The translations under genes and the position numbers were made by a program. The notes beneath the pieces were generated by a model that was given only the letters and a program-made list of their open reading frames with translations, was not told the origin of the DNA and searched no databases. 64,000 nt of DNA from a virus, in the IMG/VR virus record IMGVR_UViG_3300023223_000669, positions 119,101 to 183,100 of that record. One strand, given 5' to 3'. Positions 1,624 to 28,236 of this stretch are shown in pieces (the first letter of the stretch is position 1; each line of letters opens with the position of its first letter).

Positions 1624-2346
1624 ATGATTACGCAGAAGATGATGAAGCACAATATCGTATGGCTAGAAGAGTCCAGCATAATGGTTGATGAGATCTCTGA
1701 GGAAGAGGTTGAGTCTCTCCTGGATGAATATCGTCCTATCGTTACTCGCATTGCTCGATCGGCTTTCTATTCCTCAGCAGCTATTGATGTCAACGACCTT
1801 ATCCGCGTTGGTGAGTTTGCCGTCCTACAAGCTGTCAAAGCCTATGACCCCACCTGTGGTACAACCATTCGCTCTTTTGTGTCTAGAGTTGTACGAAACG
1901 AAATTTTCCATGAAGCCGCCCGCTTCTTGGGAGTGTTTACAGTAGACCACCGAGTCACCAGCCTAGCTGCCAAGGTTAATAAATTACACGCTAAGGGGCA
2001 GAGTGACACGGAGATTGCCGAGGTGCTCAATGCATCCGGCAGTCGCAATTTTGATGCGGACCATGTTCGCGATTTACGTATTGCCTATAGTCGCCGTCAG
2101 CATTCAGCTTTGACAGACGACGATGCTCTCGAAGAGTATTCTGCCGAGGAAAACACAATCCAAGAACTATTGCGGGGAGTTGTGCAAAACCCAATAGAGC
2201 AGACTATTTTAGACGAAAGGATCCTAGGCGATAAATCAGTAAAGGACGTGGCTTGTATCTTATGCCTATCGCAACGTCAAGTATACGATCTGGAAAACCA
2301 ACTCAAAGATCGTATCCGGAAAGCCATTGAAGATGTAACGGAATGA
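1624..2346 (+). CDS. RNA polymerase sigma-70 family factor (start may be 1681)
   Basis: Region 2 (DLIRVGEFAVLQAVKAYDP...SFVSRVVRNEI) and region 4 HTH (SVKDVACILCLSQRQVYDLE). Confidence 0.85.
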   Translation: MITQKMMKHNIVWLEESSIMVDEISEEEVESLLDEYRPIVTRIARSAFYSSAAIDVNDLIRVGEFAVLQAVKAYDPTCGTTIRSFVSRVVRNEIFHEAARFLGVFTVDHRVTSLAAKVNKLHAKGQSDTEIAEVLNASGSRNFDADHVRDLRIAYSRRQHSALTDDDALEEYSAEENTIQELLRGVVQNPIEQTILDERILGDKSVKDVACILCLSQRQVYDLENQLKDRIRKAIEDVTE

Positions 2347-4148
2347 ATGAGAAAAAGCGTGTATTGTTTATAGGTGAAGCCAGCAATTTGAGTACTGGCT
2401 TCTCGACCATTTATCGAGAACTATTACCTCGACTGGCAGCTACGGGTAAGTATGAAATCGCAGAGTTCGGATCATATGTTCGCCAAGATGATCCCAAGGT
2501 CCAAGAGTTTATTCAAGGACGCTGGAAGTTCTACGGTGTCATGCCCCTCACCCAGCAAGAAGGACAGGTTTTCAATCAGCCCAGCCCACACCCTAGGGCA
2601 AAGGGACTGAATACCAACCAGTTTGGCGAGTACAAGTTCAATCATGTTGTTGCCGATTTCAAGCCTGATATTGTCATCGATATTCGTGATTGGTGGATGT
2701 TAGAGTATCAAGAGCGAAGCGTGTTTCGTCCATTCTATAAATGGATTGTTATGCCTACTGTTGATGCTGAACCCCAGGCAGAGGAATGGATTCAAACCTA
2801 CGAAAATGCAGAAATGGTTTTGGCCTATTCTGACTATGGTGTTCATGCTCTGCGTCGTCAGAGTCAGTTGACTACCGGGGGACGCCGTAAGATGCGTGTG
2901 TTCCCGAAGGCCATGCGTCCTGGAGTTGATTTGGCTACATTTAAACCAATGGACAAGGCAGAGATTCGTGAACATTGGAATCTCTCTAAAGACAATCCGG
3001 TTATTGGCACGGTTATGCGTAATCAAAGCCGTAAGTTGTACCCTGATTTGATCGATGGTTTCGCTCGCATGCGAGAGAAGTATAAGGGCAATGAAGCGGT
3101 AGACAAGGCTGTTCTTTTGATTCATTCTTCGTGGCCAGATAATCAACATTCATTTGATTATCCGAGACACATTATGCGTCTTGAGTCTTATCCATGGATG
3201 CAGCATGCACAAAAAGGTATTCGAGGCAGCATTCTCCAGACGATCCACTGTCATACATGCAATGAGCCCTCTGTTGCGTTTGCCATGAGCCTGTGGGGTA
3301 AGCCTATCGAAGAAGGTAGAGTCAAGTTGCCATGTCCTCACTGTGGTAAGGTTGATGCTTCACCGCCGAATACTGCCATGGGTTTTTCACGCGAAGATCT
3401 TGCTAAACTGTATAACCTGATGGATCTCTATGTGCAATGTTCCATCTGTGAGGGTGACGGCATGCCCATTCAAGAGGCGAAAGCCTGTGGAGTGCCGACG
3501 CTAGCTACAGACTACACGGCCATGCGTGAGAAAGGAAGATTCCCCGACTACTCGCACTTTGAGGAGCTTGGTTATACTTCTCAGACGTACACTTGTCATA
3601 AGGGCGGCGAAGTGATTGATGTTGGTCGTTATTACTATGAGCCAGAGACCAGTTGTATGCGTGCTCACCCTGATATTGAAGACTTAGCCGACAAGATGTT
3701 TGCCATGATTAGCAATCAGGAGAAGCTGGATAGTCTTGGTGTAGAGGCCCGTACATGTGCCGAAGACAACTATGATTGGAATGTGCTTTGGAAACAATGG
3801 GAGTATGTTCTAGATAACGTTAAAATAAAGGATCGTTTGCAGACGTGGGATAGTCCCATCGCTGAGCACGAAGATATTGCTGCTGTGCCCGTGCCTGCTG
3901 CACTCAGCGATGAGCAATATGTTGAATGGCTCTATCTCAATGTTCTCAAATATCCCTCAGTTGATCCCGAGGGGGCAAAGGTTTGGGTACAGCATCTTGG
4001 ACTTGGTGTAACTCGCGAACAGATCATGCAACAGTTTGTAGCAATTGGTAATCAACAGTCCGATGGTAGCAAGATGCGTGATCAGATTCGTCAACAGGTG
4101 GCTGGTCTTACTATAAATCTACCGAAGCCCAAGCAGGAGTTCGTATAA
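2343..4148 (+). CDS. GT4-family glycosyltransferase with Zn-ribbon insert and DUF4214-like C-terminus
   Basis: GT-B motifs (LYNLMDLYVQCSICEGDGMPIQEAKACGVP); CHTC/CPHC insert; LSDEQYVEWLYLNVL tail. Confidence 0.8.
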   Translation: MNEKKRVLFIGEASNLSTGFSTIYRELLPRLAATGKYEIAEFGSYVRQDDPKVQEFIQGRWKFYGVMPLTQQEGQVFNQPSPHPRAKGLNTNQFGEYKFNHVVADFKPDIVIDIRDWWMLEYQERSVFRPFYKWIVMPTVDAEPQAEEWIQTYENAEMVLAYSDYGVHALRRQSQLTTGGRRKMRVFPKAMRPGVDLATFKPMDKAEIREHWNLSKDNPVIGTVMRNQSRKLYPDLIDGFARMREKYKGNEAVDKAVLLIHSSWPDNQHSFDYPRHIMRLESYPWMQHAQKGIRGSILQTIHCHTCNEPSVAFAMSLWGKPIEEGRVKLPCPHCGKVDASPPNTAMGFSREDLAKLYNLMDLYVQCSICEGDGMPIQEAKACGVPTLATDYTAMREKGRFPDYSHFEELGYTSQTYTCHKGGEVIDVGRYYYEPETSCMRAHPDIEDLADKMFAMISNQEKLDSLGVEARTCAEDNYDWNVLWKQWEYVLDNVKIKDRLQTWDSPIAEHEDIAAVPVPAALSDEQYVEWLYLNVLKYPSVDPEGAKVWVQHLGLGVTREQIMQQFVAIGNQQSDGSKMRDQIRQQVAGLTINLPKPKQEFV

Positions 4149-5398
4149 TGAAATTACTTTTTGTTGGTCCTCTTTTGGATTTTTCCGGCTTTGCTACGGC
4201 TTCACGTCGCTTCTTACAAGCACTCAACGAGAGCGACCTTGACTTGACGGCCCGTCCTCTACGGTATGATAAGTTGGATGATGGACAAGAGTTCACTCCG
4301 CCGGAATGGCTCGCCTCCCTTTTGAAGAATGATCTTCAAGGGGTTGATATGGCCCTTCAAATGACGACATCGAATACCGAGGCCGTCCCCGTGCCTGGTA
4401 TTTTGAATGGTCTGTATACCTTCTTTGAGACTGATCGTCTGCAACCTTTGTGGGCACAGAAGGCGAACGAGTTTGACTTCATCATTGTACCCTCGCGAAG
4501 CAATGGTGAGACGTTGCTCCGTTCGGGAGTGAATAAGCCTATTTTGTGTGCTGGCCCCCCTTGTGACATAGATGATTTCCAACGTGAACGTCAGCCGTTC
4601 GTCATTGAGCAGGCTGGTGACAGAACGATCTTCTATAATATTTGTCAGTTGAGTGCCAAGAAAGGGATTGATGTTTTGCTACGTGCTTACTATGCCGCAT
4701 TTGTCGGGGCACCCGATGAAGTGTTGCTTGTTCTCAAGACATATGTCAATATGGAGAACCGTCAGCAAGATGAAGAGATTGTTAAGCAGTATATCCAGAA
4801 TATCAAGCAACGTTGTCGTATTCCGGTTCCCCAACATCCTCCCGTGTTGCCATTAGTATATACCATGACGGACGATGAGATCCACGGTTTACATGTTGCT
4901 GGCCATGCGTACGTTTGCTCTAGTCGAGCAGAAGGATGGGGACTTCCCGTGTTTGATGCTTTGGCTCACGGTAAGACGGTCATCACCCACAATGCTGGTG
5001 GCTTGGCAGACTTCGTAACCCCAGAGAATTCGCTGCTCTATCAAGGCATGCCAACGTTCTTCTTTGATATGCCGCATCCTGATCCTGGTCTTTTTACTGG
5101 TGTTGAACAGTGCTTCGAGCCTTCGCCAGCACACTTAGCCCTCAATATGCGTAGGTTCCATCTACTCAGACGTGGTGCTGATGCTGGCGAGCTTGACGAA
5201 ACAATGCAGGCCGAATGGGCATCTGTACTGACGCGTCGTGAAAATGCTAAGCTTGTTGGCCAGAAGTTTGATTACCGTGCTATTGGTAAGCGTATTGTTG
5301 GTCAGCTAGAATCACTATTCGCCTCATGGAAAGAAACTGGTACAGCTATCTACACTCCGACAAATGATGAGAAACCTTCTCTGGAGGATTCGCTATGA
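4148..5398 (+). CDS. GT4-family glycosyltransferase
   Basis: KKGIDVLLRAY; SSRAEGWGLPVFDALAHGK motif. Confidence 0.85.
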   Translation: MKLLFVGPLLDFSGFATASRRFLQALNESDLDLTARPLRYDKLDDGQEFTPPEWLASLLKNDLQGVDMALQMTTSNTEAVPVPGILNGLYTFFETDRLQPLWAQKANEFDFIIVPSRSNGETLLRSGVNKPILCAGPPCDIDDFQRERQPFVIEQAGDRTIFYNICQLSAKKGIDVLLRAYYAAFVGAPDEVLLVLKTYVNMENRQQDEEIVKQYIQNIKQRCRIPVPQHPPVLPLVYTMTDDEIHGLHVAGHAYVCSSRAEGWGLPVFDALAHGKTVITHNAGGLADFVTPENSLLYQGMPTFFFDMPHPDPGLFTGVEQCFEPSPAHLALNMRRFHLLRRGADAGELDETMQAEWASVLTRRENAKLVGQKFDYRAIGKRIVGQLESLFASWKETGTAIYTPTNDEKPSLEDSL

Positions 5399-6534
5399 AC
5401 CAACAGCAAATCTATTACGAGCCGCAGATGCAATCGATTGCGGAGCGTGTCAATCAGCCGCCGCGTATTGTACAATGTATCCAAATGCACAACGAGGAGC
5501 AATTTGCCCCGTTGGTGCTGGCATCTATCTATGATGAGGTAGATCGTATTATTGTGATCGAGGGTGCCGTTGAGAACCGTCCGAACGCAACACAAGATGG
5601 ACACTCCACCGACAATACGTTGTCGGTGATTAAGAAATTCAAAGAAGAAAATGATCCAGACAATAAGATCCTGCTGGTCTCTATCCCCAAGTTTTGGAAA
5701 AACCTGGAGGAAATGAAACAGGTATTCCTTGATATGAGTATTCCGGGCGACTGGATCTTGATCAATGATGCAGACGAATTTTATAAGCCGTCTGATATCA
5801 GACGACTTAGGAAAGCTATTGAGCTTGAGCCGCACGCCTGCGAGTTTGTTCCGAACTTCCTGCACTTCTATCGTGACTGCTGGCATGTGGCCGTTCCTGG
5901 TCCCGAGTGGCAACCACAACATCAGCGGGTATTCAAATATGTACGCGGCATGATATACAATAGTCATCCGGTCGTTACTGACCCTGCGGGACATTGCACA
6001 TATTTCTCACCACATTATCAACAGCGTAGGGTAATGCTTAATGATTTCTTTATTTACCACTATGGTTATGCCCGTTCCAATATGGACGAAATCATGAGGG
6101 CGAAACAAGAATATTACAAGGGTGAGCTTGCGAAGCACGATGGGGCCGACAAGAAGTTTGATCAGAAAGTCAAGGACTGGTTTGATGGTACGGAACCACT
6201 ACTGAGGTTCGATGGAGAACATCCTCAAATCATTCAGGATCATTATCATGTGGCAAATAAGGTTGTGCCCAGAAATGTTCCTACCCTATGGCGGGACGAT
6301 CCTTTTTATAGTAAGGTGCTCAGGAATGAGCCCTATGGAAATATTTATTTGTGTATGACGCAGCAAGCAACGCCGCACATGCAACTGTATCACAACGGTA
6401 TGACTATTGAAAATGGTCTTGAAACAGAAGGCGATGTTCCTGTGGTACAGATGTCGATGGAAGAATATAAACAGGCCCTACAGTCTGGTGGCCTAGAAGG
6501 TTTTGGCTGTGGTAACCCCGCAGTCTCATGTTAG
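5395..6534 (+). CDS. GT2-like (GT-A) glycosyltransferase
   Basis: N-terminal HNEEQF, WILINDADEF DxD motif, IYHYGY. Confidence 0.75.
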   Translation: MNQQQIYYEPQMQSIAERVNQPPRIVQCIQMHNEEQFAPLVLASIYDEVDRIIVIEGAVENRPNATQDGHSTDNTLSVIKKFKEENDPDNKILLVSIPKFWKNLEEMKQVFLDMSIPGDWILINDADEFYKPSDIRRLRKAIELEPHACEFVPNFLHFYRDCWHVAVPGPEWQPQHQRVFKYVRGMIYNSHPVVTDPAGHCTYFSPHYQQRRVMLNDFFIYHYGYARSNMDEIMRAKQEYYKGELAKHDGADKKFDQKVKDWFDGTEPLLRFDGEHPQIIQDHYHVANKVVPRNVPTLWRDDPFYSKVLRNEPYGNIYLCMTQQATPHMQLYHNGMTIENGLETEGDVPVVQMSMEEYKQALQSGGLEGFGCGNPAVSC

Positions 6535-6544
6535 GAGAAAAATT

Positions 6545-6919
6545 ATGAGTTTTGCAACAGATTATATAACAGCGTATAGATTACTACGTCATGGCGACGT
6601 TCCCGACGATATTGGCAGAGCCTTAGGCTATGAAGACAAAGATATTCTGCTTCGTCTACGTGCCCGCTTTGGTCGTGTGAGTCTTCGTGAGGCGGTTGAT
6701 AAAAGTCGAGTTCGAATTTTTGGTCGCATTAAAGCTGCTATTTATGCTGTTAAGATGGTCAAAGAAATGAGACGACAAAAAGTTCTGATTACCAATATGC
6801 TTGGTCTTGAACAAGAGCCTGATGGCATTAGAGAGATTCATAAAAAATCCATCAATTTATTCCCTATTACGGTGCATCGCACAGTAGTTCAAATGCGTGA
6901 ACCCAAGGAAGATGCCTAG
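6545..6919 (+). CDS. Hypothetical protein
   Basis: Fills the gap between coupled ORFs; AGGAG upstream of ATG 6545. Confidence 0.55.
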   Translation: MSFATDYITAYRLLRHGDVPDDIGRALGYEDKDILLRLRARFGRVSLREAVDKSRVRIFGRIKAAIYAVKMVKEMRRQKVLITNMLGLEQEPDGIREIHKKSINLFPITVHRTVVQMREPKEDA

Positions 6920-7772
6920 ACTCAGTTACTTGGTTTCAACTTATGATTCTGGCCAATTTCTAGACGGTCACATTGCCGATCTCATTGACCATCAAACAGA
7001 TGGAGACTTTGAGATCGTAATAGTTAACCCGGCTTCGCCGGGCATTGATGGCCTCATTGCTGAGAAGTGGGCTCACGCGGATCCCCGCGTGAAGTATATC
7101 TACCATCACGAGAGAGAACCGTATGGAACCTCCTGGCTGCGAGCATGGCGAGCAGCCAGGGCTCCACTCGTGATGAACTCTAACACCGACGATTTCCATG
7201 AGCCCCGTACGACTGAATTAGTCCATAAGCACATGCGTCTGGCAACCAGCCCGATGCATACAGGTTCTAAGATCGGCTTTGGCTATGGTGGTATCACTGT
7301 GACAGACGCGAAGGTTCGTGCGACAGGAAGAGGCTTAAAACCTCCATTCAATTTTGAGGTCATGTCGTATGAGTGTCACGCTGGCCCGCAGGTTATCTGG
7401 CGAAACGACAAGCAATTCATTGATGATCTTGACTGGAATCTGATGCAAGAGCGTAGTGAGAGCTACAAGTCGGCATTTGACTACTGGCTTTGGCTGTACT
7501 TCATGAGTAAGGGGTATCGTGGCTATGTGATTCCTGAGTATCTTACGATTTACCGGCAACGTCCCGATTCTATTGAGAATCGAAATAAATGGGCTAATAA
7601 TTGGGAAACTTATGCTGCCATCAGTGAGTTTTTCGGTCATAATTTCGATGGCAAATTGACACATGCACAGGAGTTTAGGGATTTCGACGCTCTACCTCCG
7701 CGAGACGCATGGGTTGCTACAATGCAAGCAGGCGAACAATGGGAAAAATCAGAGATAGATGGTATAGGTTAG
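6912..7772 (+). CDS. GT2-family glycosyltransferase
   Basis: LSYLVSTYDSG...DFEIVIVN, NSNTDD, SAFDYWLWL. Confidence 0.8.
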   Translation: MPRLSYLVSTYDSGQFLDGHIADLIDHQTDGDFEIVIVNPASPGIDGLIAEKWAHADPRVKYIYHHEREPYGTSWLRAWRAARAPLVMNSNTDDFHEPRTTELVHKHMRLATSPMHTGSKIGFGYGGITVTDAKVRATGRGLKPPFNFEVMSYECHAGPQVIWRNDKQFIDDLDWNLMQERSESYKSAFDYWLWLYFMSKGYRGYVIPEYLTIYRQRPDSIENRNKWANNWETYAAISEFFGHNFDGKLTHAQEFRDFDALPPRDAWVATMQAGEQWEKSEIDGIG

Positions 7773-8200
7773 TTGCTGGCGGTCTTTTGCAGGCCAAGAA
7801 GCGTTTAGCTACTAAATTAGCTAGACAGATTGAGATTACAGCAGAACATGCAGCCCAATGGAGGATTGTCCAGAGACAATTCATCGCCCTGAAAGATGAT
7901 ATGAAAAAGATCCTTGCAGACAGAGACGATCAAATCGTTATTCTGAAAGAACATGTTAAGGCTGCCAAAGAGGGTCGAACAGATGACGTTGAGACAGCCA
8001 AGGACATTATCCGTGAACGCATGGGTATGGATCCAGACGCTCCTGGTAAGATGGACATATTACGAAAGCAGCTTCGCCAAGAGTGTGCCTATGTGATGTA
8101 TCTAGAAGACAATCTTGAGGATGGATTGACAGAGTTTAATGACATACCGAAAGAAGAACGTAAAGTCTATTTTGAGCGTGTAGATGAGCGGGCACGATGA
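7739..8200 (+). CDS. Hypothetical coiled-coil protein
   Basis: Charged helical ORF filling the gap between GT2 and cupin; start uncertain. Confidence 0.55.
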   Translation: MGKIRDRWYRLVAGGLLQAKKRLATKLARQIEITAEHAAQWRIVQRQFIALKDDMKKILADRDDQIVILKEHVKAAKEGRTDDVETAKDIIRERMGMDPDAPGKMDILRKQLRQECAYVMYLEDNLEDGLTEFNDIPKEERKVYFERVDERAR

Positions 8201-8565
8201 GCAAACAACGTATTGTGTCGCAGTCTTGGGGACGTGAGCGAGTCTTAGAAGAGAATGACAAGTATGTCCTTAAGATATTGGAAGTCGATCCTGGTCATCG
8301 ACTGAGCCTGCAATTCCATGACCGTCAAAGACTTACATTGTATTGTCTTTACGGTCATGGGACGCTCTTTTTGACCAACGACCAACACGATAGCGAAAGA
8401 TCCCTGCTGCCGGGGCGTTACGAAACAATCGAACCCGGCACCATCCACAGTCTTGAATCATCAGGAACGGCCCCCTGTATTGTGATGCAGATTTCGTGTG
8501 CAACAGCAAACGACACCACCATCTTAGACGTTGGCAGGTTCCTCGACCCCTTTAGCAATGATTAA
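8197..8565 (+). CDS. Cupin, mannose-6-phosphate isomerase type II C-terminal-like
   Basis: WG...KILEVDPGHRLSLQFH...PGTIHSLE matches the ManC/PMI cupin pattern. Confidence 0.7.
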   Translation: MSKQRIVSQSWGRERVLEENDKYVLKILEVDPGHRLSLQFHDRQRLTLYCLYGHGTLFLTNDQHDSERSLLPGRYETIEPGTIHSLESSGTAPCIVMQISCATANDTTILDVGRFLDPFSND

Positions 8566-9661
8566 AATATTACATTATCTCCGTAACCTCGGATTAGGTG
8601 GTACGGAAAAGACTTGCCAGTTGTTTTTTGAGCACGCGAGCAGTGATTTTGAAGTTACGGTTATACATGAAGAAAGTGGTGACTATACACGTATAGAGGA
8701 ATTTAATAAAGCCGCCAGGGTTAGTAAAGGATTGGTGCATGCTATTGATTCCTATGGGAGCAACCCACGACTGAAAGGTGACCCTGATCCAGCCCCTCTA
8801 CAAGAGGTTATCGACACTTTAAAGCCCGATATTTTACATGTCTATCGTAGCGGTTATAGCGAATTTCCGGCCAATTGCGTATATGTACCGCATACTGTTG
8901 AAACAAATGTATTTGGTTTTCTAGATCCATCTCTTAATGGTCGCACCCTTTTCATGAGTAAGTGGCTCATGGATTATGCACTTAAGAGTGGACGCTGGAA
9001 CGTAAAGGCTTTTGCGTGGGCAAAAGATAGGTTTGATTACGTGAACAATCCGGTTGAAATGCCCTACACAGACGCTACATTTTCTCACCTTTCAAGCGAT
9101 GCTATTTGGCTTGGTCGTTGTGGGCGTCCGGATAATGGCATCTACAATTCTGTAAGCGTAGACGCTGCTCGTCTGTTACGTCTACAGGGGTACGACATTC
9201 GCTTTTTAGTGGTGGCCGCACCACCCAATATGATCCTTGACTTGGAGCGTTACAAGATTCCTTTTGAAGCTATTGCACCCACGACAGATCCGTTAGTGCT
9301 GAGTCAATTTTACAACAGCGTGGACATTTATGCCCACGCTAGGGCGGACGGAGAAACCTTCGGTGTGAATATCGCTGAGGCAATGATCCATGGGAAACCC
9401 GTCGTGACGCATATCGCCACGCCGAGCTTCCCAGGTATGGGAGTATTCCAATCACAAACAGAGCTTGTCGAGGATGGCCTGACTGGTTTTATTGTACAAA
9501 ATAATGCAGCAGAATATGCCGAGGCACTCAAGCGTATTATCGAAGATGATCAATTGGCCGCGAAGATGCGAGTATTAGGACGTTTTAAAGCAACGCGTGA
9601 CTATCATGTTGATGCGTGCATGAAGAAGTTAGAGAGAATTTACCGAGAGGTTGTATCGTAA
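8558..9661 (+). CDS. GT4-family glycosyltransferase
   Basis: LGLGGTEK; DIYAHARADGETFGVNIAEAMIHGKPVV. Confidence 0.85.
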   Translation: MIKILHYLRNLGLGGTEKTCQLFFEHASSDFEVTVIHEESGDYTRIEEFNKAARVSKGLVHAIDSYGSNPRLKGDPDPAPLQEVIDTLKPDILHVYRSGYSEFPANCVYVPHTVETNVFGFLDPSLNGRTLFMSKWLMDYALKSGRWNVKAFAWAKDRFDYVNNPVEMPYTDATFSHLSSDAIWLGRCGRPDNGIYNSVSVDAARLLRLQGYDIRFLVVAAPPNMILDLERYKIPFEAIAPTTDPLVLSQFYNSVDIYAHARADGETFGVNIAEAMIHGKPVVTHIATPSFPGMGVFQSQTELVEDGLTGFIVQNNAAEYAEALKRIIEDDQLAAKMRVLGRFKATRDYHVDACMKKLERIYREVVS

Positions 9662-11192: not shown

Positions 11193-11383
11193 CTATTGAG
11201 CTAGCAAAAGCCGTTTTAGAGTGGTGGGAAGACCAACCGCAAGAGCCAAAGCCTCGTTTTGTGCAACTAGCTGAGAATGAAGCCGAAAGAGTTCTCGATG
11301 AAGACGGTAAGTGTAAACGTTGTGGCGGCTGGGGTGCTCCTACTGGATGTCGCACTTGTGGCACAACTTGTATGGGTGGTTAA
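11189..11383 (+). CDS. Small Cys-rich hypothetical protein
   Basis: CKRC/CRTC pairs; coupled to previous stop. Confidence 0.5.
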   Translation: MTIELAKAVLEWWEDQPQEPKPRFVQLAENEAERVLDEDGKCKRCGGWGAPTGCRTCGTTCMGG

Positions 11384-11386
11384 TTC

Positions 11387-18392: not shown

Positions 18393-18397
18393 TTGCC

Positions 18398-19006: not shown

Positions 19007-19020
19007 TGAGGAGTTTGAAT

Positions 19021-20615: not shown

Positions 20616-21273
20616 ATTGATCGATCTAGGAATCCAGTTGTCGGATTTTGTCGTGGGTACTGAGGGTAACGTATCACAAAGAACAGAACGTGGGTTCGTC
20701 ATCAAGGCTAGTGGTAAATCCTTGAAGCACATGAATGATGACGCACTTGTACACTGTGACACTGACGGTAGACCCTTGCCTGATCAGCATGGGATGGAAT
20801 CAGTTAGGCCAAGCATGGAGGTCAGTTTTCATGTCTGGATTTACAAGAACTCAGATTACAGCTTTGTGGCTCATACACACCCCACAAACGTCTTGAAGAT
20901 TCTATGCTCCCCCTGGGCTGCCATAGGACAATTTGCAAGCAAGAGACTTTTTCCAGATCAGGTAGTATTCAATGGTGCCAGGGCTTATGTCGTTCCATAT
21001 GCTACCCCAGGTGAGGATCTGACAAATGCAATTATGAATGCGGTTCTGCCGGGCGTGTCGGTGCCTAGTCTGTTTCTACTCAAGAATCATGGCATTATTT
21101 GCTGTGCCAATTCAGTACAACAAGCCGTGACCATGACCGAAGTCTGCGAAAAAGCAGCGGAGATTTTCATTGGAGCCCACGCTCTTGGCGAACCCACTTT
21201 CTTGAGCGATCGACAGGTGCTTGCCATTCAGGGGCATCCGGATGAGGTATATCGACATGATCATTCGAGTTGA
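20602..21273 (+). CDS. Class II aldolase/adducin family protein
   Basis: GNVS; IKASG; PSME..H; AHTHP; LLKNHGII. Confidence 0.88.
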   Translation: MKHPELIDLGIQLSDFVVGTEGNVSQRTERGFVIKASGKSLKHMNDDALVHCDTDGRPLPDQHGMESVRPSMEVSFHVWIYKNSDYSFVAHTHPTNVLKILCSPWAAIGQFASKRLFPDQVVFNGARAYVVPYATPGEDLTNAIMNAVLPGVSVPSLFLLKNHGIICCANSVQQAVTMTEVCEKAAEIFIGAHALGEPTFLSDRQVLAIQGHPDEVYRHDHSS

Positions 21274-21565
21274 CATCGATGAGACCATTTGTTTTTATAA
21301 AGAGGAGATCGCTCTTGATGGTAAAAAGAACTATGGTGCGGCAATACCACACCATAAGAATATTGCCAAGATCAATGCTCTATATGATGCTGGCAACATC
21401 ATAATCTACTGGACCTCTAGAGGCAGCAGAAGCGGTATCGATTGGACTGAGTTTACAGAGCGACAACTGAACGAGTGGGGAGCAAAGCACCACGAACTAC
21501 ACTGTGACAAGCCCTACTACGACGTGTTCGTAGAAGATCGCAGCGTCAGGATTGAAGAACTATGA
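21257..21565 (+). CDS. Small HAD-family phosphatase (capsule-biosynthesis type)
   Basis: VDIDETIC DxD motif; YWTSRG; KPYYDVFVEDR. Confidence 0.8.
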   Translation: MIIRVDIDETICFYKEEIALDGKKNYGAAIPHHKNIAKINALYDAGNIIIYWTSRGSRSGIDWTEFTERQLNEWGAKHHELHCDKPYYDVFVEDRSVRIEEL

Positions 21566-22203
21566 ATCACATGGACGACATTCACTTGGAGAATAGAGGG
21601 AAGCTCATTGGAGAGAACAAAGACCTCTTAGAGCAGACGGCCTTTCTTGAGTTTGGGGTGTATCATGGAACCTCCATGTTGATGTGGCATGGCCTGTATG
21701 AGCGTTACGACGTGTCTAAAAACTTCATTGGTTTTGATTCCTTTCAAGGCATCCCAGAAGAGACAGAGGATGAGAACAGTATTGATGATTGGAAAGAGGG
21801 AAGCTTTAGCACTAATGGTGTAATCAATCCAGACTTGTGTAAGCCAGACATCCGACTGGTCAAAGGCTTCTTTAGTGATTCTTTGACTGATGATGTCGTC
21901 AAGATGTTGGGAGGCACTAAGGTTGGCCTCGTTCACATGGACTGTGATACATACTCTTCTACGAAAACAATTTGGGAATGGCTGCTCAAGCATGATCTTC
22001 TAGCGTTCGGAGCCTTGGTGGTCTATGATGACTGGGGAGGTTATCTCAAGGGTGGGTGTGGTGAATATGATCTTGGTGAGGCCAAGGCCCACCGAGAGAT
22101 TGAAGCGGAGCATAACATCCATTTCACAGACCTAGGCAGGTACATTGTTGACCCTACGTTCTACGTAGTAAAGATGTTTAGATATGAAGATTATTTCTCA
22201 TAG
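21562..22203 (+). CDS. TylF/MycF-like O-methyltransferase
   Basis: LEFGVYHG; GFDSFQG; LVKGFFSDSL; VHMDCDTY; VVYDDW. Confidence 0.82.
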   Translation: MNHMDDIHLENRGKLIGENKDLLEQTAFLEFGVYHGTSMLMWHGLYERYDVSKNFIGFDSFQGIPEETEDENSIDDWKEGSFSTNGVINPDLCKPDIRLVKGFFSDSLTDDVVKMLGGTKVGLVHMDCDTYSSTKTIWEWLLKHDLLAFGALVVYDDWGGYLKGGCGEYDLGEAKAHREIEAEHNIHFTDLGRYIVDPTFYVVKMFRYEDYFS

Positions 22204-22627
22204 AGGCAACATCCGTGGGCCTAACCCCAAAAAAGAAAACATGCCGCTGTACGTAGACGAGGCCATAGGGCTGGGTTTTGATGTAGAAGTTGATGTCAGA
22301 GTGATAGATGGTAAGGTTTACCTTGGTCATGATGGTCCTGACTATGAAGTAGATTTAGATTGGCTTCTTGAAAGAAGGCATAATCTTTGGGTCCATTGTA
22401 AGAATTTGGAAGCAGCACACTGGCTCGCTACTGACTTAAGATGTTTTTGTAGCATAAGCGATCCTTTTTGTTTCATTACTCAAGGTTATTTATGGTTAAA
22501 TGATTTAGAAGTTGAACCAACGGATAATTGTATTGTACCATTACTGCATACTGATGACCTCAAACGCTACAGGTTTATGGGTGAACCCTGGGGCGTGTGT
22601 ACCGACTATCCAATGGAGATCAAATAA
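22184..22627 (+). CDS. PLC/GDPD-like phosphodiesterase-domain protein
   Basis: IISHRGN..EN; GFDVEVD; LGHD; GVCTDY. Confidence 0.72.
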   Translation: MKIISHRGNIRGPNPKKENMPLYVDEAIGLGFDVEVDVRVIDGKVYLGHDGPDYEVDLDWLLERRHNLWVHCKNLEAAHWLATDLRCFCSISDPFCFITQGYLWLNDLEVEPTDNCIVPLLHTDDLKRYRFMGEPWGVCTDYPMEIK

Positions 22628-24168
22628 TGCCGCGTGATATTCAATTAATTATACCGATGGCTGGTAGTAGTGAAATGTTTACGAACGTTGGCCCCAAATG
22701 GCTAATTGACATAGATGGCAAACCCATGATTCAACATGTAGTTGATCAATTTCCTGGAGTTACGGACATACTATTTATTTGTAACAAAGAGGAATTACAA
22801 AATCTAGATGTGGCGAACGCACTAAAGTCATTAGGAGGTAGAGTAGTTGGAGTAAATCCAAACAGCAACGGTCCAGTGGACACTATACTTCAAGCTATAG
22901 AATACATCTCAGATGAAAAAGAGATTGTAGTGAGTTATTGTGATCATGGAATGGTTTGGAATTTTCACTCCTTTCTAGAAGAGGTTAGGCGTGGAAATTT
23001 TGATGGTGCCATGACTTGTTACAATGACTTTCATCCACATACATTGGGAACGACTGGTCTATACACCTTTTGTAGACAAAAAGACAACAAGCTCTTAGAG
23101 GTACAGGACAAGAAGCCTTTTATAGAAGAGAGGAGTTCTGAGTTTGTTTCAAGCGATGTATTTTACTTTAGGAATGGTGGTATACTGAAAAAGTATTTTG
23201 AGACGGCTATCGACAAACCGGGCATGAGTTATGATGGGAATTACTTTGTTGCTCTGGTATACAACTTGCTGATAGCAGACAACTTGAATGTTCATGTCCA
23301 TAAAATTGACACAATGTTATTGTGGGCCACACCAGAGGATCTGGAGGTTTACAAACAATGGTCAAGATACTTTGCCCAGAAGAAGCAAAAGACAGATAGG
23401 GCACCAGAGCAAGACTTCACGTTGATCCTGCCTATGTCGGGCAAGGGTACGAGATTTGCTAGGGCAGGGTACAAGTTGCCGAAACCACTACTGCCTGTTG
23501 ATGGTAAGCCGATGGTTGTTCAGGTTGCGGAGTGTTTACCAAGACATACAAATGATGTTTTTATCTGTTTGGAGGAGCACTCTATTGGTCGTACGCTTCG
23601 AGATCATTTTCCTAACTCGATAGTGCGGATTATTGATTATGTTACGGAGGGCTATGCTGCTTCGTGCGAGTTGGGAATTGACCTTATTGATGAAGATAAC
23701 CCTATCATGATTTCTCCCTGTGACAATGGAGTTTCGTATGACGAGCAAGCATTTTTGGACATGGTTGCTGACGAAGATAACGACGTGATAGTTTGGTCTT
23801 TTAGAAACAGTCAGGCGAGCAAGACAAATCCAGCCATGTATACTTGGATGGATGTTGATGAGAACAATTTTTTGTGTGACATGCTTTATAAGCAAGTGCC
23901 CAAGGGAGATCCTCTAAAGACTCATGTCAGTGTTGGCATTATGTATTTCAGAAAAGCCAAGTACCTCTTGGAAGGTCTCAGAAAGAATCGTGAACAAAAC
24001 AAAAGACCAATTGGCGAGCTTTGTATAGATAGTGTTGCACATCAACTTGCAGACAACAACTACAAGGTTAAAGTATTTGAAGTAGATCATTATGCTTGTT
24101 GGGGAACGCCCGGCGACTATAAAGCCTATCAATTTTGGGAAAATCATTTCGCATGTTCGCCGTCTTAG
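22627..24168 (+). CDS. Tandem two-domain sugar nucleotidyltransferase
   Basis: Two NTP_transferase modules: IPMAGSSEMF..GPKWLI (degenerate) and LPMSGKGTRF..GYKLPKPLL; C-terminal WGTPGD. Confidence 0.82.
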   Translation: MPRDIQLIIPMAGSSEMFTNVGPKWLIDIDGKPMIQHVVDQFPGVTDILFICNKEELQNLDVANALKSLGGRVVGVNPNSNGPVDTILQAIEYISDEKEIVVSYCDHGMVWNFHSFLEEVRRGNFDGAMTCYNDFHPHTLGTTGLYTFCRQKDNKLLEVQDKKPFIEERSSEFVSSDVFYFRNGGILKKYFETAIDKPGMSYDGNYFVALVYNLLIADNLNVHVHKIDTMLLWATPEDLEVYKQWSRYFAQKKQKTDRAPEQDFTLILPMSGKGTRFARAGYKLPKPLLPVDGKPMVVQVAECLPRHTNDVFICLEEHSIGRTLRDHFPNSIVRIIDYVTEGYAASCELGIDLIDEDNPIMISPCDNGVSYDEQAFLDMVADEDNDVIVWSFRNSQASKTNPAMYTWMDVDENNFLCDMLYKQVPKGDPLKTHVSVGIMYFRKAKYLLEGLRKNREQNKRPIGELCIDSVAHQLADNNYKVKVFEVDHYACWGTPGDYKAYQFWENHFACSPS

Positions 24169-25055
24169 ATATCAATAGGTCCAAAATCTGTTATCACACT
24201 CATCCATGCGTGTGGACTAGTGAGTATTACAAGTATTGCTTACACCTACTCATTTTGTCTTTACAACTGATTGACCAACCGATCAATATCATCTTGGGGA
24301 CTATCGATTACAATTTTCGAAACACAAACAGAACTCTTCGGTTGGACATTCAGTCAGAGCATACCTTAGTGAAGCGTGGCGGAAGAGATGTTGGCGAGAT
24401 TGTGTGGGGAGACGTGGATCTTTTGGACGAGGAGGGTAAGTACCTCATCAGGATACCAAACTATGAGTATTTCTCCAAGCTCGATGCTACCATTGAATAC
24501 AGTCTTCCAAACATGGTAAACATGAGCACTAATGATAAGTACTCAGGCTACCTTGAAACCGCGACTTACGTAGCTCCAGTCATCTATTTTTCACCAGACT
24601 TTCAAAACAGACAAGGGACAGCGACGATCACCATGTTCTCAAACAATCCATGTGAGAGGAGACTTGAGTTCTCCACGAGGGCTAGAGACATTGTGAATAT
24701 TCAAGGCGTCTTTTCCAAGGAAGACTTGAGGCAGGTTTACCATACCAGCAGGGTGATGGTCAATGTCCACCAGACTGATCATCACCACACCTTTGAGGAA
24801 CTAAGGGTATTGCCCGCATTGTGCAATGGCGTGGTGATTGTGTCCGAAGACGTTCCTCTAAAAGATAAGATTCCTTACGCAGACTCTATCGTATGGTGTT
24901 CCTACGAAGATCTCGTTGAAACGGTTGAAGATGTACAACATAACTATAAACTTTATTTCGAGAAGATCTTTACGAGTAACCTAGAGGAGCACATCAGACA
25001 GCTCCATAAAGATAACATCGAAGGTTTGACTGATTTAATCCGTCAAATAGCTTGA
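24153..25055 (+). CDS. Glycosyltransferase-like protein (GT-B C-terminal domain)
   Basis: SRVMVNVHQ..HHTFEELRVLPAL..GVVIVSE. Confidence 0.6.
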   Translation: MFAVLDINRSKICYHTHPCVWTSEYYKYCLHLLILSLQLIDQPINIILGTIDYNFRNTNRTLRLDIQSEHTLVKRGGRDVGEIVWGDVDLLDEEGKYLIRIPNYEYFSKLDATIEYSLPNMVNMSTNDKYSGYLETATYVAPVIYFSPDFQNRQGTATITMFSNNPCERRLEFSTRARDIVNIQGVFSKEDLRQVYHTSRVMVNVHQTDHHHTFEELRVLPALCNGVVIVSEDVPLKDKIPYADSIVWCSYEDLVETVEDVQHNYKLYFEKIFTSNLEEHIRQLHKDNIEGLTDLIRQIA

Positions 25056-25080
25056 CACACCTAGGGTAAATTGATATAAT
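25052..25080 (+). promoter_or_regulatory. Consensus sigma70 promoter, likely leaderless transcript
   Basis: TTGACA-17 nt-TATAAT with extended TG; ATG 5 nt downstream. Confidence 0.8.
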
Positions 25081-25085
25081 AAGAT

Positions 25086-25628
25086 ATGGGTCGTACACTT
25101 GATTTAGAAGGTCAGAGATTTGGTATGTTGGTGACTACCAATACATTAAAACTTGTTAAATATCCTTCGAGAAGCAGTACTGTGCGTTTATGTCATTGTG
25201 ATTGTGGCCAGTCAGTATGGTTACCAACTAATTATTTGACTTGTGGCAGAGTCAAGGCGTGTGGCTGTAGACGGCAAACGGCACCTGGCCGTGCGGCTAG
25301 AAATCAGATATTGGATGGATATAAACGTGGAGCAATAGAGCGTGGTCTAGAATGGAATTTAACGGAAGAAGAGTTCGATCATATTACTGCTATGAATTGT
25401 TTTTATTGTGGTCAGTTACCTAGTAGAGAAAAAATAACAAGAGGTAATAATGGTAGTTTTGTTTATAACGGAATTGATCGCAAAGATAATAGTAGAGGGT
25501 ATTTGACTGACAACATAGTACCCTGCTGCTCTATTTGCAACAGAGCCAAGCGTGCAATGTCGTTTAATGATTTTATTCAATGGTTAGAATGTTTGGTTGA
25601 GTATAGGGGTGTACAATGCGGGTCTTGA
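25086..25628 (+). CDS. HNH-like homing endonuclease (CxYCG...GIDRxD family)
   Basis: GQRFGML N-terminus; CFYCG; NGIDRKDN..GY..N.VPCC..CN.AK. Confidence 0.8.
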   Translation: MGRTLDLEGQRFGMLVTTNTLKLVKYPSRSSTVRLCHCDCGQSVWLPTNYLTCGRVKACGCRRQTAPGRAARNQILDGYKRGAIERGLEWNLTEEEFDHITAMNCFYCGQLPSREKITRGNNGSFVYNGIDRKDNSRGYLTDNIVPCCSICNRAKRAMSFNDFIQWLECLVEYRGVQCGS

Positions 25629-26620
25629 TTACCGGAAGCTCGGGCTTCGTCGGCAAGCATGTCGTCAAGGCATTAGAAAATGATCACGATATTCTGGCGT
25701 TGTCACGCAAAGGACTCGATCTTTTGAGTCCTCCCACCGGAGAGACGACAAGGGGTTTAGTGGGGGCCAATTCTGCCGAAGCATTGTCGCTGTGGTTTAA
25801 GAACTATGAACACTACAACGGTCGCATCGACGCTATCGTGCATCTTGCGGCAACATGTGGCGGCATCGGCATCAATGCGGACAACCCAGGTAGATTCATC
25901 TACGAGAATCTCCAGATGGGCATCAATGTACTGGAGGCGGCCCGACTCGCGGGAGTCAAGAAGATCGTTAACCTCGGCACGGTTTGTGCCTATCCTAAGT
26001 ATGCTACTATTCCTTTTAAAGAAAGCGAGATTTGGGATGGATATCCAGAAGAGACCAACGCCCCCTACGGCATTGCCAAGAAGACCATCATGGAAATGGG
26101 CATTGCCTACTCACGTCAGTATGGGATGGACATTACCAATCTTGTGCCGGTGAACATGGCAGGAGAGCACGATAACTTTGATGAGTATTCGTCACATGTG
26201 ATTCCTGCACTGATTCAGAAATTTGAGCATCCAGTAGAATATGAGAGCGGTCTTGAAATTGTTGATGAAGATCATTCAAGAACATTAGTACAGCTATGGG
26301 GTACGGGGTCAGCTTCACGAGAATTCTTGTACGCGGGTGATTGTGCTAGGGCCATTGCCGTTGCCTTAGAAAAGCATACTGGTCCTGACCCTATCAATTT
26401 GGGCACCGGTAAAGAAATTACTATTCGTCAGCTTGCTGAGTTAGTCAAGAAGGTTGGTGGCTATGATTCTTATATTGTGTGGGATAAAAGCAAGCCGGAT
26501 GGTCAGCCTAGACGATGTTTAGATGTCACTAGAGCAAAGCACGTTTTGCGATGGGAAGCTACAACAACGCTGGAAGAAATTATCCGTCGTACTATTTCTT
26601 GGTATAGAGAAAATGGGTAG
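25616..26620 (+). CDS. fcl: GDP-L-fucose synthase
   Basis: TGSSGFVG; HLAATCGGIG; GTVCAYP; YGIAKK; WGTG..REFLY; KPDGQPRR. Confidence 0.92.
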   Translation: MRVLITGSSGFVGKHVVKALENDHDILALSRKGLDLLSPPTGETTRGLVGANSAEALSLWFKNYEHYNGRIDAIVHLAATCGGIGINADNPGRFIYENLQMGINVLEAARLAGVKKIVNLGTVCAYPKYATIPFKESEIWDGYPEETNAPYGIAKKTIMEMGIAYSRQYGMDITNLVPVNMAGEHDNFDEYSSHVIPALIQKFEHPVEYESGLEIVDEDHSRTLVQLWGTGSASREFLYAGDCARAIAVALEKHTGPDPINLGTGKEITIRQLAELVKKVGGYDSYIVWDKSKPDGQPRRCLDVTRAKHVLRWEATTTLEEIIRRTISWYRENG

Positions 26621-27176
26621 ACCAGCATTAAATTTGGGTGGTAGGCGTTTTGGTAAACTTGTGGCTACGAATACGCTCCGTATTGCGGCGGGGAATAATC
26701 GCCAACGTTTGTGTTATTGTGATTGTGGTAATGAAACATGGCTTGGGACTACTAATCTAACCACCGGGCACACTCAAAGTTGTGGATGTTGGTTAATGGA
26801 ATTTAAATCACTACCAAGCGGTCAAGCCGCTCGGAACGAAGTTTTTAGTGGTTACAAATCAGACGCAAAAAGACGCGGGCTGGAGTGGAATTTAACTGAT
26901 GAGCAATTTGATGCTGTAGTTTCTCAATGTTGTTTTTACTGTGGCCTAGAGCCATCTAATCGTAACAGTGTGAATCGAAATGGTGGCCGTAAGAATAGAT
27001 TAAGCTCTGGAGATTTTGTTTATAGCGGCATTGATAGAGTCAATAACAATCTTGGTTATCATGCTGATAATATTGTTGCTTGTTGTAAAATTTGCAACAA
27101 GGCCAAAAGTAACATGTCACTTTCCGATTTCTTAGAATGGATTAACAGGATCAAACAACATGACATCGTTTGTTAA
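26613..27176 (+). CDS. HNH-like homing endonuclease (paralog of 25086)
   Basis: GRRFGKL; CFYCG; SGIDRVNN..GY..N.VACC..CNKAK. Confidence 0.8.
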   Translation: MGRPALNLGGRRFGKLVATNTLRIAAGNNRQRLCYCDCGNETWLGTTNLTTGHTQSCGCWLMEFKSLPSGQAARNEVFSGYKSDAKRRGLEWNLTDEQFDAVVSQCCFYCGLEPSNRNSVNRNGGRKNRLSSGDFVYSGIDRVNNNLGYHADNIVACCKICNKAKSNMSLSDFLEWINRIKQHDIVC

Positions 27177-28236
27177 ACATCCAACGGCTCTTGTCACTGG
27201 AATTACGGGCCAGGACGGATATTACTTAGCACATTTTCTATTAGAACAGGGCTATCGAGTCGTAGGACTCGTACGTCGCACCTCCCTACCCACCGATTCG
27301 CGTCTGCGAACCTTACGCGGTAGCCCTAACTTACACCTGGTACATGGCGATGTGGACGACATCACGAGTATTCAGTCAGCTATCAGAGAATTTCAACCTC
27401 ATGAATTCTATCACCTGGCGGCACAGAGTCACGTAGCTGTTTCGTGGGAAGTCCCTATTGCTACCGCTAACACTACTGGCCTTGGCGTGTTGAATTGTCT
27501 GGAAGCTTTGAGGCAGGAAAAACCGGACTGTCGATTCTATTTTGCTGGCAGTAGCGAGCAGTTTGGTAATGCGTTGCCTGATCCGGGCGGTATTATCAAA
27601 ATACAAGATTCACAAACGGGTGAAATGACCAGGCAAAAATTGCACGAACGTTCCCCCATGCGTCCGGAATCTCCATATGCGGCTGCTAAGGTGTTTGGAT
27701 ATCACATTACTAGGGTATACCGTAGATCCTTTGATGTGTTTGCAAGCTGTGGCATATTGTTTAATCATGAATCGCCCGTTAGGGGCGAAGAGTTTGTGAC
27801 TCGCAAAATCACGCGTGGTTTAGCACGCGTGAAGTGGGACCTACAAGAATATATAGAACTCGGTAATATGAACGCTTGTCGTGATTGGGGGTTTGCGGGT
27901 GATTATGTGCGTGCCATGCATGCAATGTTACAACATGATGAGCCCGATGATTTCGTGATTGCTACTGGCCAGACAAACTCGGTCAAGCATTTTTTCAACG
28001 AGTGTTGCGAGTGGTTTGACCTTGACCCCGCTGTGGTATATAAGGTCAACGATAAATTTATGCGTCCAAAAGACATTGAAGTACTTTTGGGCGATAGTTC
28101 TAAGGCACAAAGAGTATTAGGCTGGAAGCCAGAGTGTGATTTCGAGACTTTAGTCTCGAAGATGTGTCGATATGACTACCACCTACAATCCCCCGACCCC
28201 TCCATGTCGCGAAAGGCAGATGAGTTTCTTTTCTAA
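27160..28236 (+). CDS. gmd: GDP-mannose 4,6-dehydratase
   Basis: TGITGQDG; LAAQSHV; SPYAAAK; GILFNHESP.RGEEFVTRKIT; RDWGFAGDYV. Confidence 0.95.
   Translation: MTSFVKHPTALVTGITGQDGYYLAHFLLEQGYRVVGLVRRTSLPTDSRLRTLRGSPNLHLVHGDVDDITSIQSAIREFQPHEFYHLAAQSHVAVSWEVPIATANTTGLGVLNCLEALRQEKPDCRFYFAGSSEQFGNALPDPGGIIKIQDSQTGEMTRQKLHERSPMRPESPYAAAKVFGYHITRVYRRSFDVFASCGILFNHESPVRGEEFVTRKITRGLARVKWDLQEYIELGNMNACRDWGFAGDYVRAMHAMLQHDEPDDFVIATGQTNSVKHFFNECCEWFDLDPAVVYKVNDKFMRPKDIEVLLGDSSKAQRVLGWKPECDFETLVSKMCRYDYHLQSPDPSMSRKADEFLF

Follow-up and report, generated by a model that had tools for sequence, protein, structure and literature searches.

A phage-encoded glycan biosynthesis island without export genes at a conserved post-dnaE locus

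The last 64 kb (positions 119,101 to 183,100) of IMG/VR virus record IMGVR_UViG_3300023223_000669, a complete 183,100-bp phage record with direct terminal repeats, carry a large glycan biosynthesis island that encodes glycosyltransferases (GTs), methyltransferases, and GDP-sugar enzymes together with no export machinery. We refer to this 64,000-nucleotide stretch as the window; coordinates are window positions unless genome positions are specified, genes are designated by their first nucleotide, and the island genes, the dnaE and sigma genes before them, the promoters, the terminator, and the candidate acceptor genes lie on the + strand. The island spans positions 2343 to 28236 and makes up 14% of the 183-kb genome (G000), which we compared with the relatives G001 (154 kb, 99% complete), G002, G003 (178 kb, 89% complete), and G004. 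Gene order among relatives indicates an ancient locus at an unchanging position, in which an "inner" part is conserved while an "outer" part is exchanged in the manner of a serotype locus. We see about an even chance that the phage's own virion proteins receive the glycan, in the cytoplasm, which makes them the most likely acceptor. New features of the system are its constant position after dnaE throughout a deep clade, a conserved anchor enzyme (GT4-DUF4214) of viral type, the defined variable slot, an IMPDH-family gene embedded in the island, and a second GT pair beside the terminase genes.

Gene content of the island

Gene families were assigned with Pfam, NCBIfam, and PHROGs, together with AlphaFold models, fold matches against the PDB, and ESM-Atlas clusters. 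The island holds ~34 co-oriented open reading frames (ORFs), which overlap or abut except at two gaps, one of 195 bp at 11192 to 11387 (with a possible 69-aa ORF inside) and one of 30 bp at 25055 to 25086. An earlier reading of the window from its letters and ORFs (the sequence-only reading) had listed about 13 GTs, three methyltransferases, gmd, fcl, a cupin, and a tandem nucleotidyltransferase in a coupled block between dnaE/sigma and nucleotide metabolism genes. Both the inventory and the arrangement were borne out by Pfam, NCBIfam, fold, and motif evidence. Missing from that list were the IMPDH-family gene 12465, the PRK-like gene 19839, the class II aldolase gene 20590, the HAD-like gene 21221, four homing-endonuclease-like genes, and two GT genes outside the island.

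The GT count is made up of 10 proteins at or above Pfam cutoffs, one weak match, one fold-based assignment, and one motif-only assignment. Four are GT-B/GT4-like by Pfam: the 601-aa anchor GT (2343 to 4148), which joins a GT-B/GT4-like core to a C-terminal DUF4214 domain; a second conserved GT-B enzyme (4148 to 5398; Glycos_transf_1); and two paralogues with 29% identity (8531 to 9661 and 10026 to 11192). Another four match GT2, namely, 5395 to 6534 (conserved in relatives and borderline, at 23.4 bits against a cutoff of 23.3), 6897 to 7772 (E = 1.5e-11), 14798 to 15523 (E = 4.7e-20), and 17574. CgeB-like GTs (PF13524) are encoded at 13963 to 14874 (E = 7.5e-11) and at 15956 to 16930 (E = 6.9e-30), the latter having a paralogue beside the terminase genes; 24135 is a weak member (19.6 bits, under the cutoff). 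The fold-based assignment is ORF 11387 (11387 to 12115), and ORF 18985 was called GT-like from a VVDNNS motif alone. The three methyltransferases are a class I S-adenosylmethionine-dependent enzyme (16882 to 17577; Methyltransf_11) conserved in G001 to G004, the TylF-type 21562, and the weakly matching 18398.

Sugar-nucleotide genes stand at the right end and within the island. The best NCBIfam and PDB matches identify 27160 to 28236, the right-end gene, as a GDP-mannose 4,6-dehydratase gene (gmd; Pfam GDP_Man_Dehyd, E = 2.3e-105; NCBIfam gmd, E = 2e-101) and 25616 to 26620 as a GDP-l-fucose synthase gene (fcl/GMER; NCBIfam GDPFucSynFcl, E = 1.4e-74), yet both fall under the equivalog cutoffs (for fcl, 251 bits against 500). 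When Fcl was aligned to E. coli GMER (1e7q), the Cys, the Tyr and Lys pair, and the His, which we take from GMER residue numbering to be catalytic, were all kept; the Ser107 position is occupied by Val, with a Thr one residue before it. A small cupin (8197 to 8565) resembles the C-terminal domain of type II mannose-6-phosphate isomerase (Pfam MannoseP_isomer, E = 2.2e-9; NCBIfam GMP_PMI, weak). The product of 12465 to 13547 belongs to the IMPDH/GMP reductase family (Pfam IMPDH, E = 3e-92; best PDB match, 3r2g) and lacks the CBS subdomain; its gene sits inside the island in G001 to G004 as well.

A variable module occupies positions 17574 to 25055. By Pfam and NCBIfam it encodes, in order, a GT2 enzyme (17574), the weak methyltransferase (18398), the motif-only GT-like ORF (18985), a PRK/uridine-kinase-family kinase (19839), a class II aldolase/epimerase (20590), a protein with a weak HAD/PNKP-type phosphatase match (21221), the TylF-type methyltransferase (21562), ORF 22184, the tandem nucleotidyltransferase (22597), and the weak CgeB-like GT (24135). 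A GDPD-like reading of 22184 comes from an ISHRG motif alone. No family was found for ORFs 6503, 9616, 12112, 18985, and 22184 in Pfam (at E values up to 1) or PHROGs. Among cellular proteins, the PRK-like kinase is matched best (35% identity, E = 6e-39) by the C-terminal domain of a protein of 691 aa from a Cyanobacteriota genome sample. The N-terminal half of this protein weakly matches GT87 and DUF2079 (membrane GT-C-like); this domain arrangement hints that the kinase subfamily may be tied to glycan synthesis and not to the Calvin cycle.

Anchor enzymes of viral families

The families to which the core GTs belong are almost exclusively viral. Alignment of relatives and Pfam matches showed that the anchor GT has an EX7E motif (E370 and E378), a CxxC...CxxC insert, and the C-terminal DUF4214 domain. 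Its model (pLDDT, 78.8) has as its top PDB fold match the chlorovirus NY-2A GT 3oy2 (TMt, 0.80), a likeness at the level of fold with 13 to 14% identity to the chlorovirus enzymes. The 3oy2 protein is B736L, a homologue of PBCV-1 A546L (PMC5408694). The ESM-Atlas clusters closest to the anchor GT are 88 to 100% viral, one of them having 448 members, and a PDB sequence search gave no match for the anchor GT or the CgeB-like GT.

ORF 11387 has no Pfam match; its family, for which Pfam has no model, is dominated by viruses. Its predicted structure (pLDDT, 88.6) has a GT-A fold, the DxD motif (D103 and D105) is invariant in the alignment, and feature-based Atlas clusters are ≥94% viral; bacterial structural look-alikes carry TPR repeats. 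Glycogenin, PBCV-1 A064R (domain 1), and Skp1 AgtA are among its top fold matches, which are weak, with scores too low to carry weight. These three enzymes act on protein-linked glycans and are cytoplasmic. A homologue of ORF 11387 also occurs in CAKLQH020000005.1 ("Acinetobacter phage MD-2021a"), which looks like a bacterial chromosome contig (recN, coaE, gspEF, and rlmB); there, the annotation places the protein that contains it in the SPINDLY family of O-GlcNAc transferases.

Further fold matches of the anchor GT bring in a different kind of product. They include the methylmannose polysaccharide mannosyltransferase 7qsg and the small-molecule GTs MshA, BshA, and sucrose-phosphate synthase, and they would suit a soluble cytoplasmic product (a polymethylated polysaccharide or glycoside) or glycosylated host proteins, by which metabolism would be redirected or defense blocked. 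The mycobacterial methylmannose polysaccharide stays intracellular, the relatives encode many methyltransferases, and the second GT (4148) weakly matches GT4-conflict in Pfam. However, the fold matches cited are generic for GT-B enzymes, and 13 different GTs with a serotype-like slot are hard to fit to an internal metabolite. We know of no phage precedent for a soluble internal glycan or a host protein target of such an island, and we consider a product of this kind quite unlikely.

A fixed locus with a variable slot

Relatives of the anchor GT were found in at least 32 IMG/VR contigs. The sequence-only reading had proposed a look at synteny in related phages, and the island proved to hold the same position after dnaE (plus the sigma gene in close relatives) in at least 32 contigs. 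In four long relatives with 59 to 78% identity, the distance from the anchor GT gene to gmd is 20 to 27 kb. The conserved core consists of 2343, 4148, 5395, 6897, 8531, 10026, 11387, the IMPDH-like gene 12465, 13963, 14798, 15956, the methyltransferase gene 16882, fcl, and gmd.

The 32 contigs include a distant and partly marine group, with ~35% identity in the anchor GT, in which the gene order is a split dnaE, the anchor GT gene, usually the second GT gene, and then unrelated ORFs of 140 to 330 aa. Of four such distant marine loci, three retain the second GT, and in three the run of ORFs closes with homologues of window ORF 28913, 29595, or 30597.

The slot lies between the methyltransferase gene 16882, its left border, and fcl. 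As a block, 17574 to 25055 is common to G002 alone. In G001, the slot is reduced to a 2.4-kb remnant with only a GT2 gene, and in G003 and G004 it is filled by other genes, which encode a HAD_2 phosphatase, a single-domain nucleotidyltransferase, several methyltransferases, proteins without a family, and a LAGLIDADG protein. Homing-endonuclease-like genes occupy differing junctions among the relatives. The IMPDH-family gene of G004 is a single 610-aa ORF with an HNH_3 domain at residues 188 to 226, before the IMPDH barrel, which would be either an in-frame endonuclease fusion or the result of a miscalled start.

Export machinery and the host envelope

Hydropathy of all ORFs of ≥50 aa was scanned by the Kyte-Doolittle method. 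No hydrophobic segments were found in the island proteins, as expected from the sequence-only reading, which had seen no ORF with multiple transmembrane segments there. Scans of the whole G000, G001, and G003 genomes revealed no transporter-like polytopic protein; scattered hydrophobic stretches are confined to tape-measure and tail proteins. The earlier reading had also raised the prospect of a flippase or polymerase elsewhere in the genome. Neither was detected in G000 or in G001 and G003, nor was an ABC-2 permease or a chain-length regulator. No ORF in the three genomes has the transmembrane segments needed by an initiating polyprenyl-phosphate phosphoglycosyltransferase of the WecA/WbaP type, and no such Pfam family occurred among the ORFs scanned.

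From the missing exporter, the sequence-only reading had concluded that the acceptor is cytoplasmic. The system is indeed self-contained, soluble, and phage specific, but the argument is not decisive. The GTs of ABC-transporter-dependent O-antigen pathways (GT-B and GT-A) are also soluble or peripheral; they use a host undecaprenyl-linked primer, and a host transporter then exports the product. Since such soluble GTs rely on host carriers and transporters, the host surface could be modified without a phage exporter. The phage GTs would then extend a host undecaprenyl-phosphate-linked primer at the cytoplasmic face of the membrane, and host Wzx/Wzy or Wzm/Wzt would export a methyl-capped polymer, with superinfection exclusion, less loss of progeny on debris, or grazer avoidance as the gain. 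GT4 and GT2 enzymes, methyltransferases, a P-loop kinase, and GDP-sugar genes also compose ABC-dependent O-antigen loci (for example, E. coli O9a, with WbdA-D), and a serotype-like variable slot suits a surface antigen. Analogous cyanomyovirus clusters have been interpreted in this way (PMC12801897), and a preprint proposes that the RTX-DUF4214 protein Psh binds O-antigen, with DUF4214 suggested to stabilize the complex.

Several observations stand against remodeling of the envelope. With no initiating phosphoglycosyltransferase, flippase, polymerase, or ABC permease in three genomes, the phage would depend on its host for each membrane step. The families of the core GTs are almost purely viral and not host-like, the tandem nucleotidyltransferase and the PRK-like kinase have distant cellular relatives only (30 to 38% identity), and additional GT genes lie within the packaging/structural block. 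We regard envelope remodeling as possible and, on this evidence, somewhat unlikely.

Nucleotide metabolism genes and DNA modification

The island lies among replication and nucleotide metabolism genes. Its downstream flank encodes MazG, ribonucleotide reductase, and ThyX, and genes for a deoxynucleoside monophosphate (dNMP) kinase and a nucleoside deoxyribosyltransferase-like protein are also present in the window. This setting would suit hypermodification of phage DNA, in which GTs glycosylate modified bases against restriction. Some phages are known to encode GTs that attach mono- to oligosaccharides to 5-hydroxymethylpyrimidines (Pyle et al. 2024, cited in PMC12619734).

Searches of the complete genome found no ThyA-family dCMP/dUMP hydroxymethylase (PF00303) and no C5 DNA methylase (PF00145), and the positive controls worked; a normal ThyX is present. 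Tet_JBP (PF12851) also had no match in the genome, in a search whose positive control failed too. In the Pfam scans, no island ORF matched a family specific to DNA glucosyltransferases. Known DNA glycans involve far fewer GTs and methyltransferases, and we know of none that would need 13 GTs and 3 methyltransferases. DNA as the acceptor is thus highly improbable.

Expression of the island

Genome positions 108519 to 156638 (window positions −10581 to 37538) form a ~48-kb gene train with no intergenic gap of >35 bp. The train opens with a gene for a Ser-Gly-rich 238-aa protein, continues through RecA, DnaB, DnaE, sigma, the glycan island, and nucleotide metabolism genes, and is closed by the first strong downstream intrinsic terminator (37560 to 37595; 16-bp stem). 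By this arrangement, the island looks to be coexpressed with the replication and sigma genes rather than with late genes. Because the train is free of gaps and includes the sigma and replication genes, the island enzymes would probably be made before the late proteins. The soluble GTs of PBCV-1 are likewise expressed early and cytoplasmic (PMC5408694). A consensus scan found a sigma-70-like extended −10 promoter before the sigma gene (1594 to 1621; 10 of 12 matches, with TG), a candidate start of a sigma-plus-island transcript. A perfect sigma-70 consensus promoter with TG lies at 25052 to 25080, in the 30-bp gap before ORF 25086.

The 10-mer TTAGTGTATT has 11 copies in the genome (~0.35 expected by chance), all on the + strand and 10 to 100 nt (in one case, ~700 nt) before the next start. 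Two are in the window (37592 and 41640) and nine are elsewhere; most precede structural genes, often directly after a terminator. The motif is conserved, with five copies in G001 and three in G003, and may serve the phage sigma factor as a late promoter.

Candidate acceptors on the virion

Of the two cytoplasmic acceptors offered by the sequence-only reading, DNA is disfavored by the lack of a ThyA-family hydroxymethylase and a C5 methylase, and virion proteins are favored indirectly. A second GT cassette (genome positions 64143 to 66173, 53 to 55 kb before the window start) encodes a CgeB-like GT (PF13524, 84.8 bits) and a GT2 enzyme. It lies just upstream of small ORFs and the TerL and portal genes, with the same synteny in G001 and G003; two ORFs upstream of it (271 and 260 aa) yielded no family.

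The dipeptide Ser-Gly is in excess in tail-tip, fiber, and decoration-like proteins and restricted to them. A 1,622-aa protein has 38 copies where 14.8 are expected. Further proteins of these classes have 11 copies (3.1 expected) and, for two encoded in the window, 7 (1.9 expected) and 14 (6.8 expected). The island enzymes have no excess (26 observed, 27.2 expected). The candidate acceptors in the window are encoded at 40492 to 44257: a virion structural protein (40492; PHROG 1645, E = 7.6e-43), a weakly head-decoration-like ORF (41671; PHROG 2647, weak), and a fiber-like protein (42458) whose end is weakly BclA_C-like, below the cutoff. The 41671 and 42458 products are Ser-Gly rich and have a common N-terminal motif.

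These genes form part of a small satellite virion gene cluster (40492 to 44990) that lies far from the main structural module. Its proteins are of 383 aa (the PHROG 1645 member, with ~10 N-x-S/T sites by hand count), 268 aa, and 599 aa (fiber-like).

The viral core GT families, the chlorovirus fold matches, the GT pair beside the terminase genes, and the Ser-Gly-rich tail and fiber proteins point weakly to the virion. Other results weigh against it. A shared GT-B or GT-A fold is a poor guide to the acceptor, and MshA, BshA, and PimB′ nearly equal the chlorovirus enzyme in the anchor GT fold scores. The Ser-Gly motif may be purely structural. Glycosylation sites of mycobacteriophage capsid and tail-tube proteins are said to be Ser/Thr-rich C-terminal tails; no such tails were found on the structural proteins here, which have at most 10 Ser/Thr per 25-residue window and ordinary C termini. 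The TTAGTGTATT motif was not found in or just before the island, so that timing lends no support to a virion target. Analogous cyanophage clusters are usually read as host cell surface genes (PMC12801897).

A more specific version of virion glycosylation would apply to a clade of uncultured aquatic and mat phages. In these phages, the GT4-DUF4214 enzyme would start the chain on Ser-Gly sites of tail fiber and head decoration proteins and swappable modules would vary the outer sugars. The result would be a virion coat that resembles an O-antigen and is diversified as cassettes are exchanged, a process in which the homing endonucleases of the island might assist. We think it unlikely that this scheme holds in all its parts.

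Proposed pathway

We propose that the island is a self-contained cytoplasmic glycan factory. From their families, Gmd and Fcl would convert GDP-mannose to GDP-l-fucose, and the cupin, the tandem nucleotidyltransferase, and the IMPDH-family enzyme could plausibly feed the GDP-sugar pool, with the IMPDH-family enzyme likely tuning guanine nucleotide supply. The variable module (P-loop kinase, class II aldolase/epimerase-like enzyme, HAD-like phosphatase, and nucleotidyltransferase) probably makes a further activated sugar by a kinase/phosphatase/nucleotidylyl-transfer route like that to GDP-heptose, and probably also transfers an extra methylated sugar. About 13 soluble GT-B, GT-A, and CgeB-like transferases and the three methyltransferases would build and O-methylate a branched or long heteroglycan. 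Its first steps are probably catalyzed by the two conserved left-end GTs, and its outer, variable part would be determined by the swappable slot. Transfer to virion proteins would occur in the cytoplasm, as it does for chloroviruses and mycobacteriophages, and would leave a variable sugar coat on tail, fiber, or head decoration proteins.

Comparison with known systems

The closest likeness in gene content is to cyanomyovirus clusters (S-SRM01, S-SCSM2R, S-SCSM1, and P-SSM2), in which gmd, fcl, a nucleoside diphosphate (NDP)-sugar synthase gene, a small HAD/PNKP-type phosphatase gene, and genes for many soluble GTs and methyltransferases likewise form one co-oriented block in a lytic phage. The freshwater cyanomyovirus S-SRM01 (MW015081, 190.6 to 209.3 kb) has a 14-kb cluster with gmd, fcl, and genes for an NDP-sugar synthase, a PNKP-type phosphatase, fucosyltransferases, GT2 and GT25 enzymes, and an FkbM methyltransferase. 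Homologues there share 44% (gmd), 38% (fcl), and 39% (the GT-A-fold ORF 11387) identity; the remaining GTs are not orthologous, and the phage backbone is different. S-SCSM2R encodes 13 GTs, perhaps the most of any marine phage (PMC12801897). Given these two precedents, the novelty claimed by the sequence-only reading was overstated. Unlike the cyanomyovirus clusters, the island here occupies a fixed post-dnaE locus and has a conserved DUF4214-bearing anchor GT, and S-SCSM2R has a gene for the export protein pgaA, whereas the genome studied here has no export gene.

Chloroviruses (PBCV-1 and NY-2A), which glycosylate their major capsid protein autonomously, also encode their own GMD and GMER, mostly soluble, early, cytoplasmic GTs without signal peptides, and methyltransferase activity (PMC5408694). 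They differ in being giant viruses of a eukaryotic algal host with scattered GT genes, and their capsid glycan is known, whereas here genes alone are read; the function of B736L/A546L is itself not established. In mycobacteriophages (Che8, Corndog, and Myrna; Freeman et al. 2023, cited in PMC12363180 and PMC12619734), soluble phage-encoded GTs O-glycosylate structural proteins of the virion within the cytoplasm of the bacterium, and no export genes take part; the targets described in PMC12619734 are C-terminal parts of capsid and tail-tube proteins. When three island proteins were compared by tblastn with 50,697 phage records, no actinophage was matched, and similarity to Arthrobacter and Gordonia phage GTs was limited to distant fold matches. 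The mycobacteriophage systems reportedly have few GTs (and, in some cases, methyltransferases), compared with ~13 GTs plus sugar-nucleotide synthesis here.

Two cellular systems provide further parallels. In the Bacillus subtilis spore crust (CgeB, CgeD, and Sps), soluble CgeB-family GTs glycosylate a protein shell inside the mother cell cytoplasm with no exporter. This phage genome encodes three CgeB-like GTs in the island and one beside the terminase genes, a likeness at the Pfam domain level; the spore crust is a cellular developmental system, and it has no protein homologues here. The E. coli O9a locus (manBC-wzm-wzt-wbdDABC) resembles the island in GDP-sugar supply, GT4 enzymes, and a methyltransferase and a kinase with a potential role in chain capping. 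In contrast to O9a-type loci, the island comes with no wzm/wzt, initiating transferase, or ligase.

To our knowledge, large phage sugar clusters have been known in cyanophages for 20 years without an assigned function, and virion glycosylation has been proven solely for mycobacteriophages and giant algal viruses. The lineage described here offers a clean test case, with a complete exporter-less genome, conserved phage-specific anchor enzymes, one defined varying slot, and candidate acceptors. If the glycan is on the virion, natural tailed phages would commonly bear variable sugar coats, with a bearing on adsorption, stability, resistance to proteases and grazers, and the immune visibility of therapeutic phages. 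If it is on the host surface, the island would represent an unusually large investment by a lytic phage in remodeling of the infected cell.

Homing endonucleases, host, and neighboring genes

Two homing-endonuclease-like genes of the island match Pfam HNH_3, one at 13544 to 13975, which is missing from the same spot in relatives, and one at 15528 to 15959 (E = 2.6e-15). Two Cys-rich, HNH-like paralogues with 47% identity bracket fcl (25086 to 25628, assigned by motif and paralogues, and 26523 to 27176). They belong to a family of five members with a CCxICNxAK motif, which has no Pfam or PHROG match and whose other members (33618 to 34106, 36962 to 37537, and 47283 to 47888) are likewise scattered among conserved genes. 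From motif and distribution, these proteins are probably free-standing HNH-type homing endonucleases.

A megablast search of 20 kb of the island against the 50,697 phage records found no cultured phage with matching DNA. DnaE is ~30% identical to those of assorted phages; for TerL, identity to the proteins of Bacillus Slash-like phages and of Microcystis phage MaeS is 24%. The genome lacks T4-like genes and psbA, and no tRNA was found in the 64-kb window; PhoH, peptide deformylase, MazG, and ThyX lend it at most a weak cyanophage-like flavor. The data do not point to a T4-like cyanomyovirus backbone with a cyanobacterial host, given the lack of near or distant DNA matches to cultured phages, the TerL identity, the lack of psbA, and a PRK-like gene at 30 to 38% identity to cyanobacterial PRKs. 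Two host inferences from single genes were set aside: the sole full-length cellular homologue of the tandem nucleotidyltransferase is in a Woesearchaeota metagenome-assembled genome (30% identity), and the kinase has 30 to 38% identity to PRKs, which were found in 289 of 301 Cyanobacteriota genomes.

On the left flank, the C-terminal part of a DnaE-type DNA polymerase III alpha subunit (18 to 1373; Pfam DNA_pol3_finger, HHH_6, and OB fold) is encoded by an ORF that begins before the window. It is followed by a phage sigma factor gene (1624 to 2346; Sigma70_r2, E = 4.9e-7), which overlaps the first GT gene and is kept in G001 to G003. On the right, a gene between those for MazG and ribonucleotide reductase (32332 to 33621) encodes a DAO-family, FAD-dependent oxidoreductase (E = 6e-54) whose single hydrophobic segment is N-terminal.

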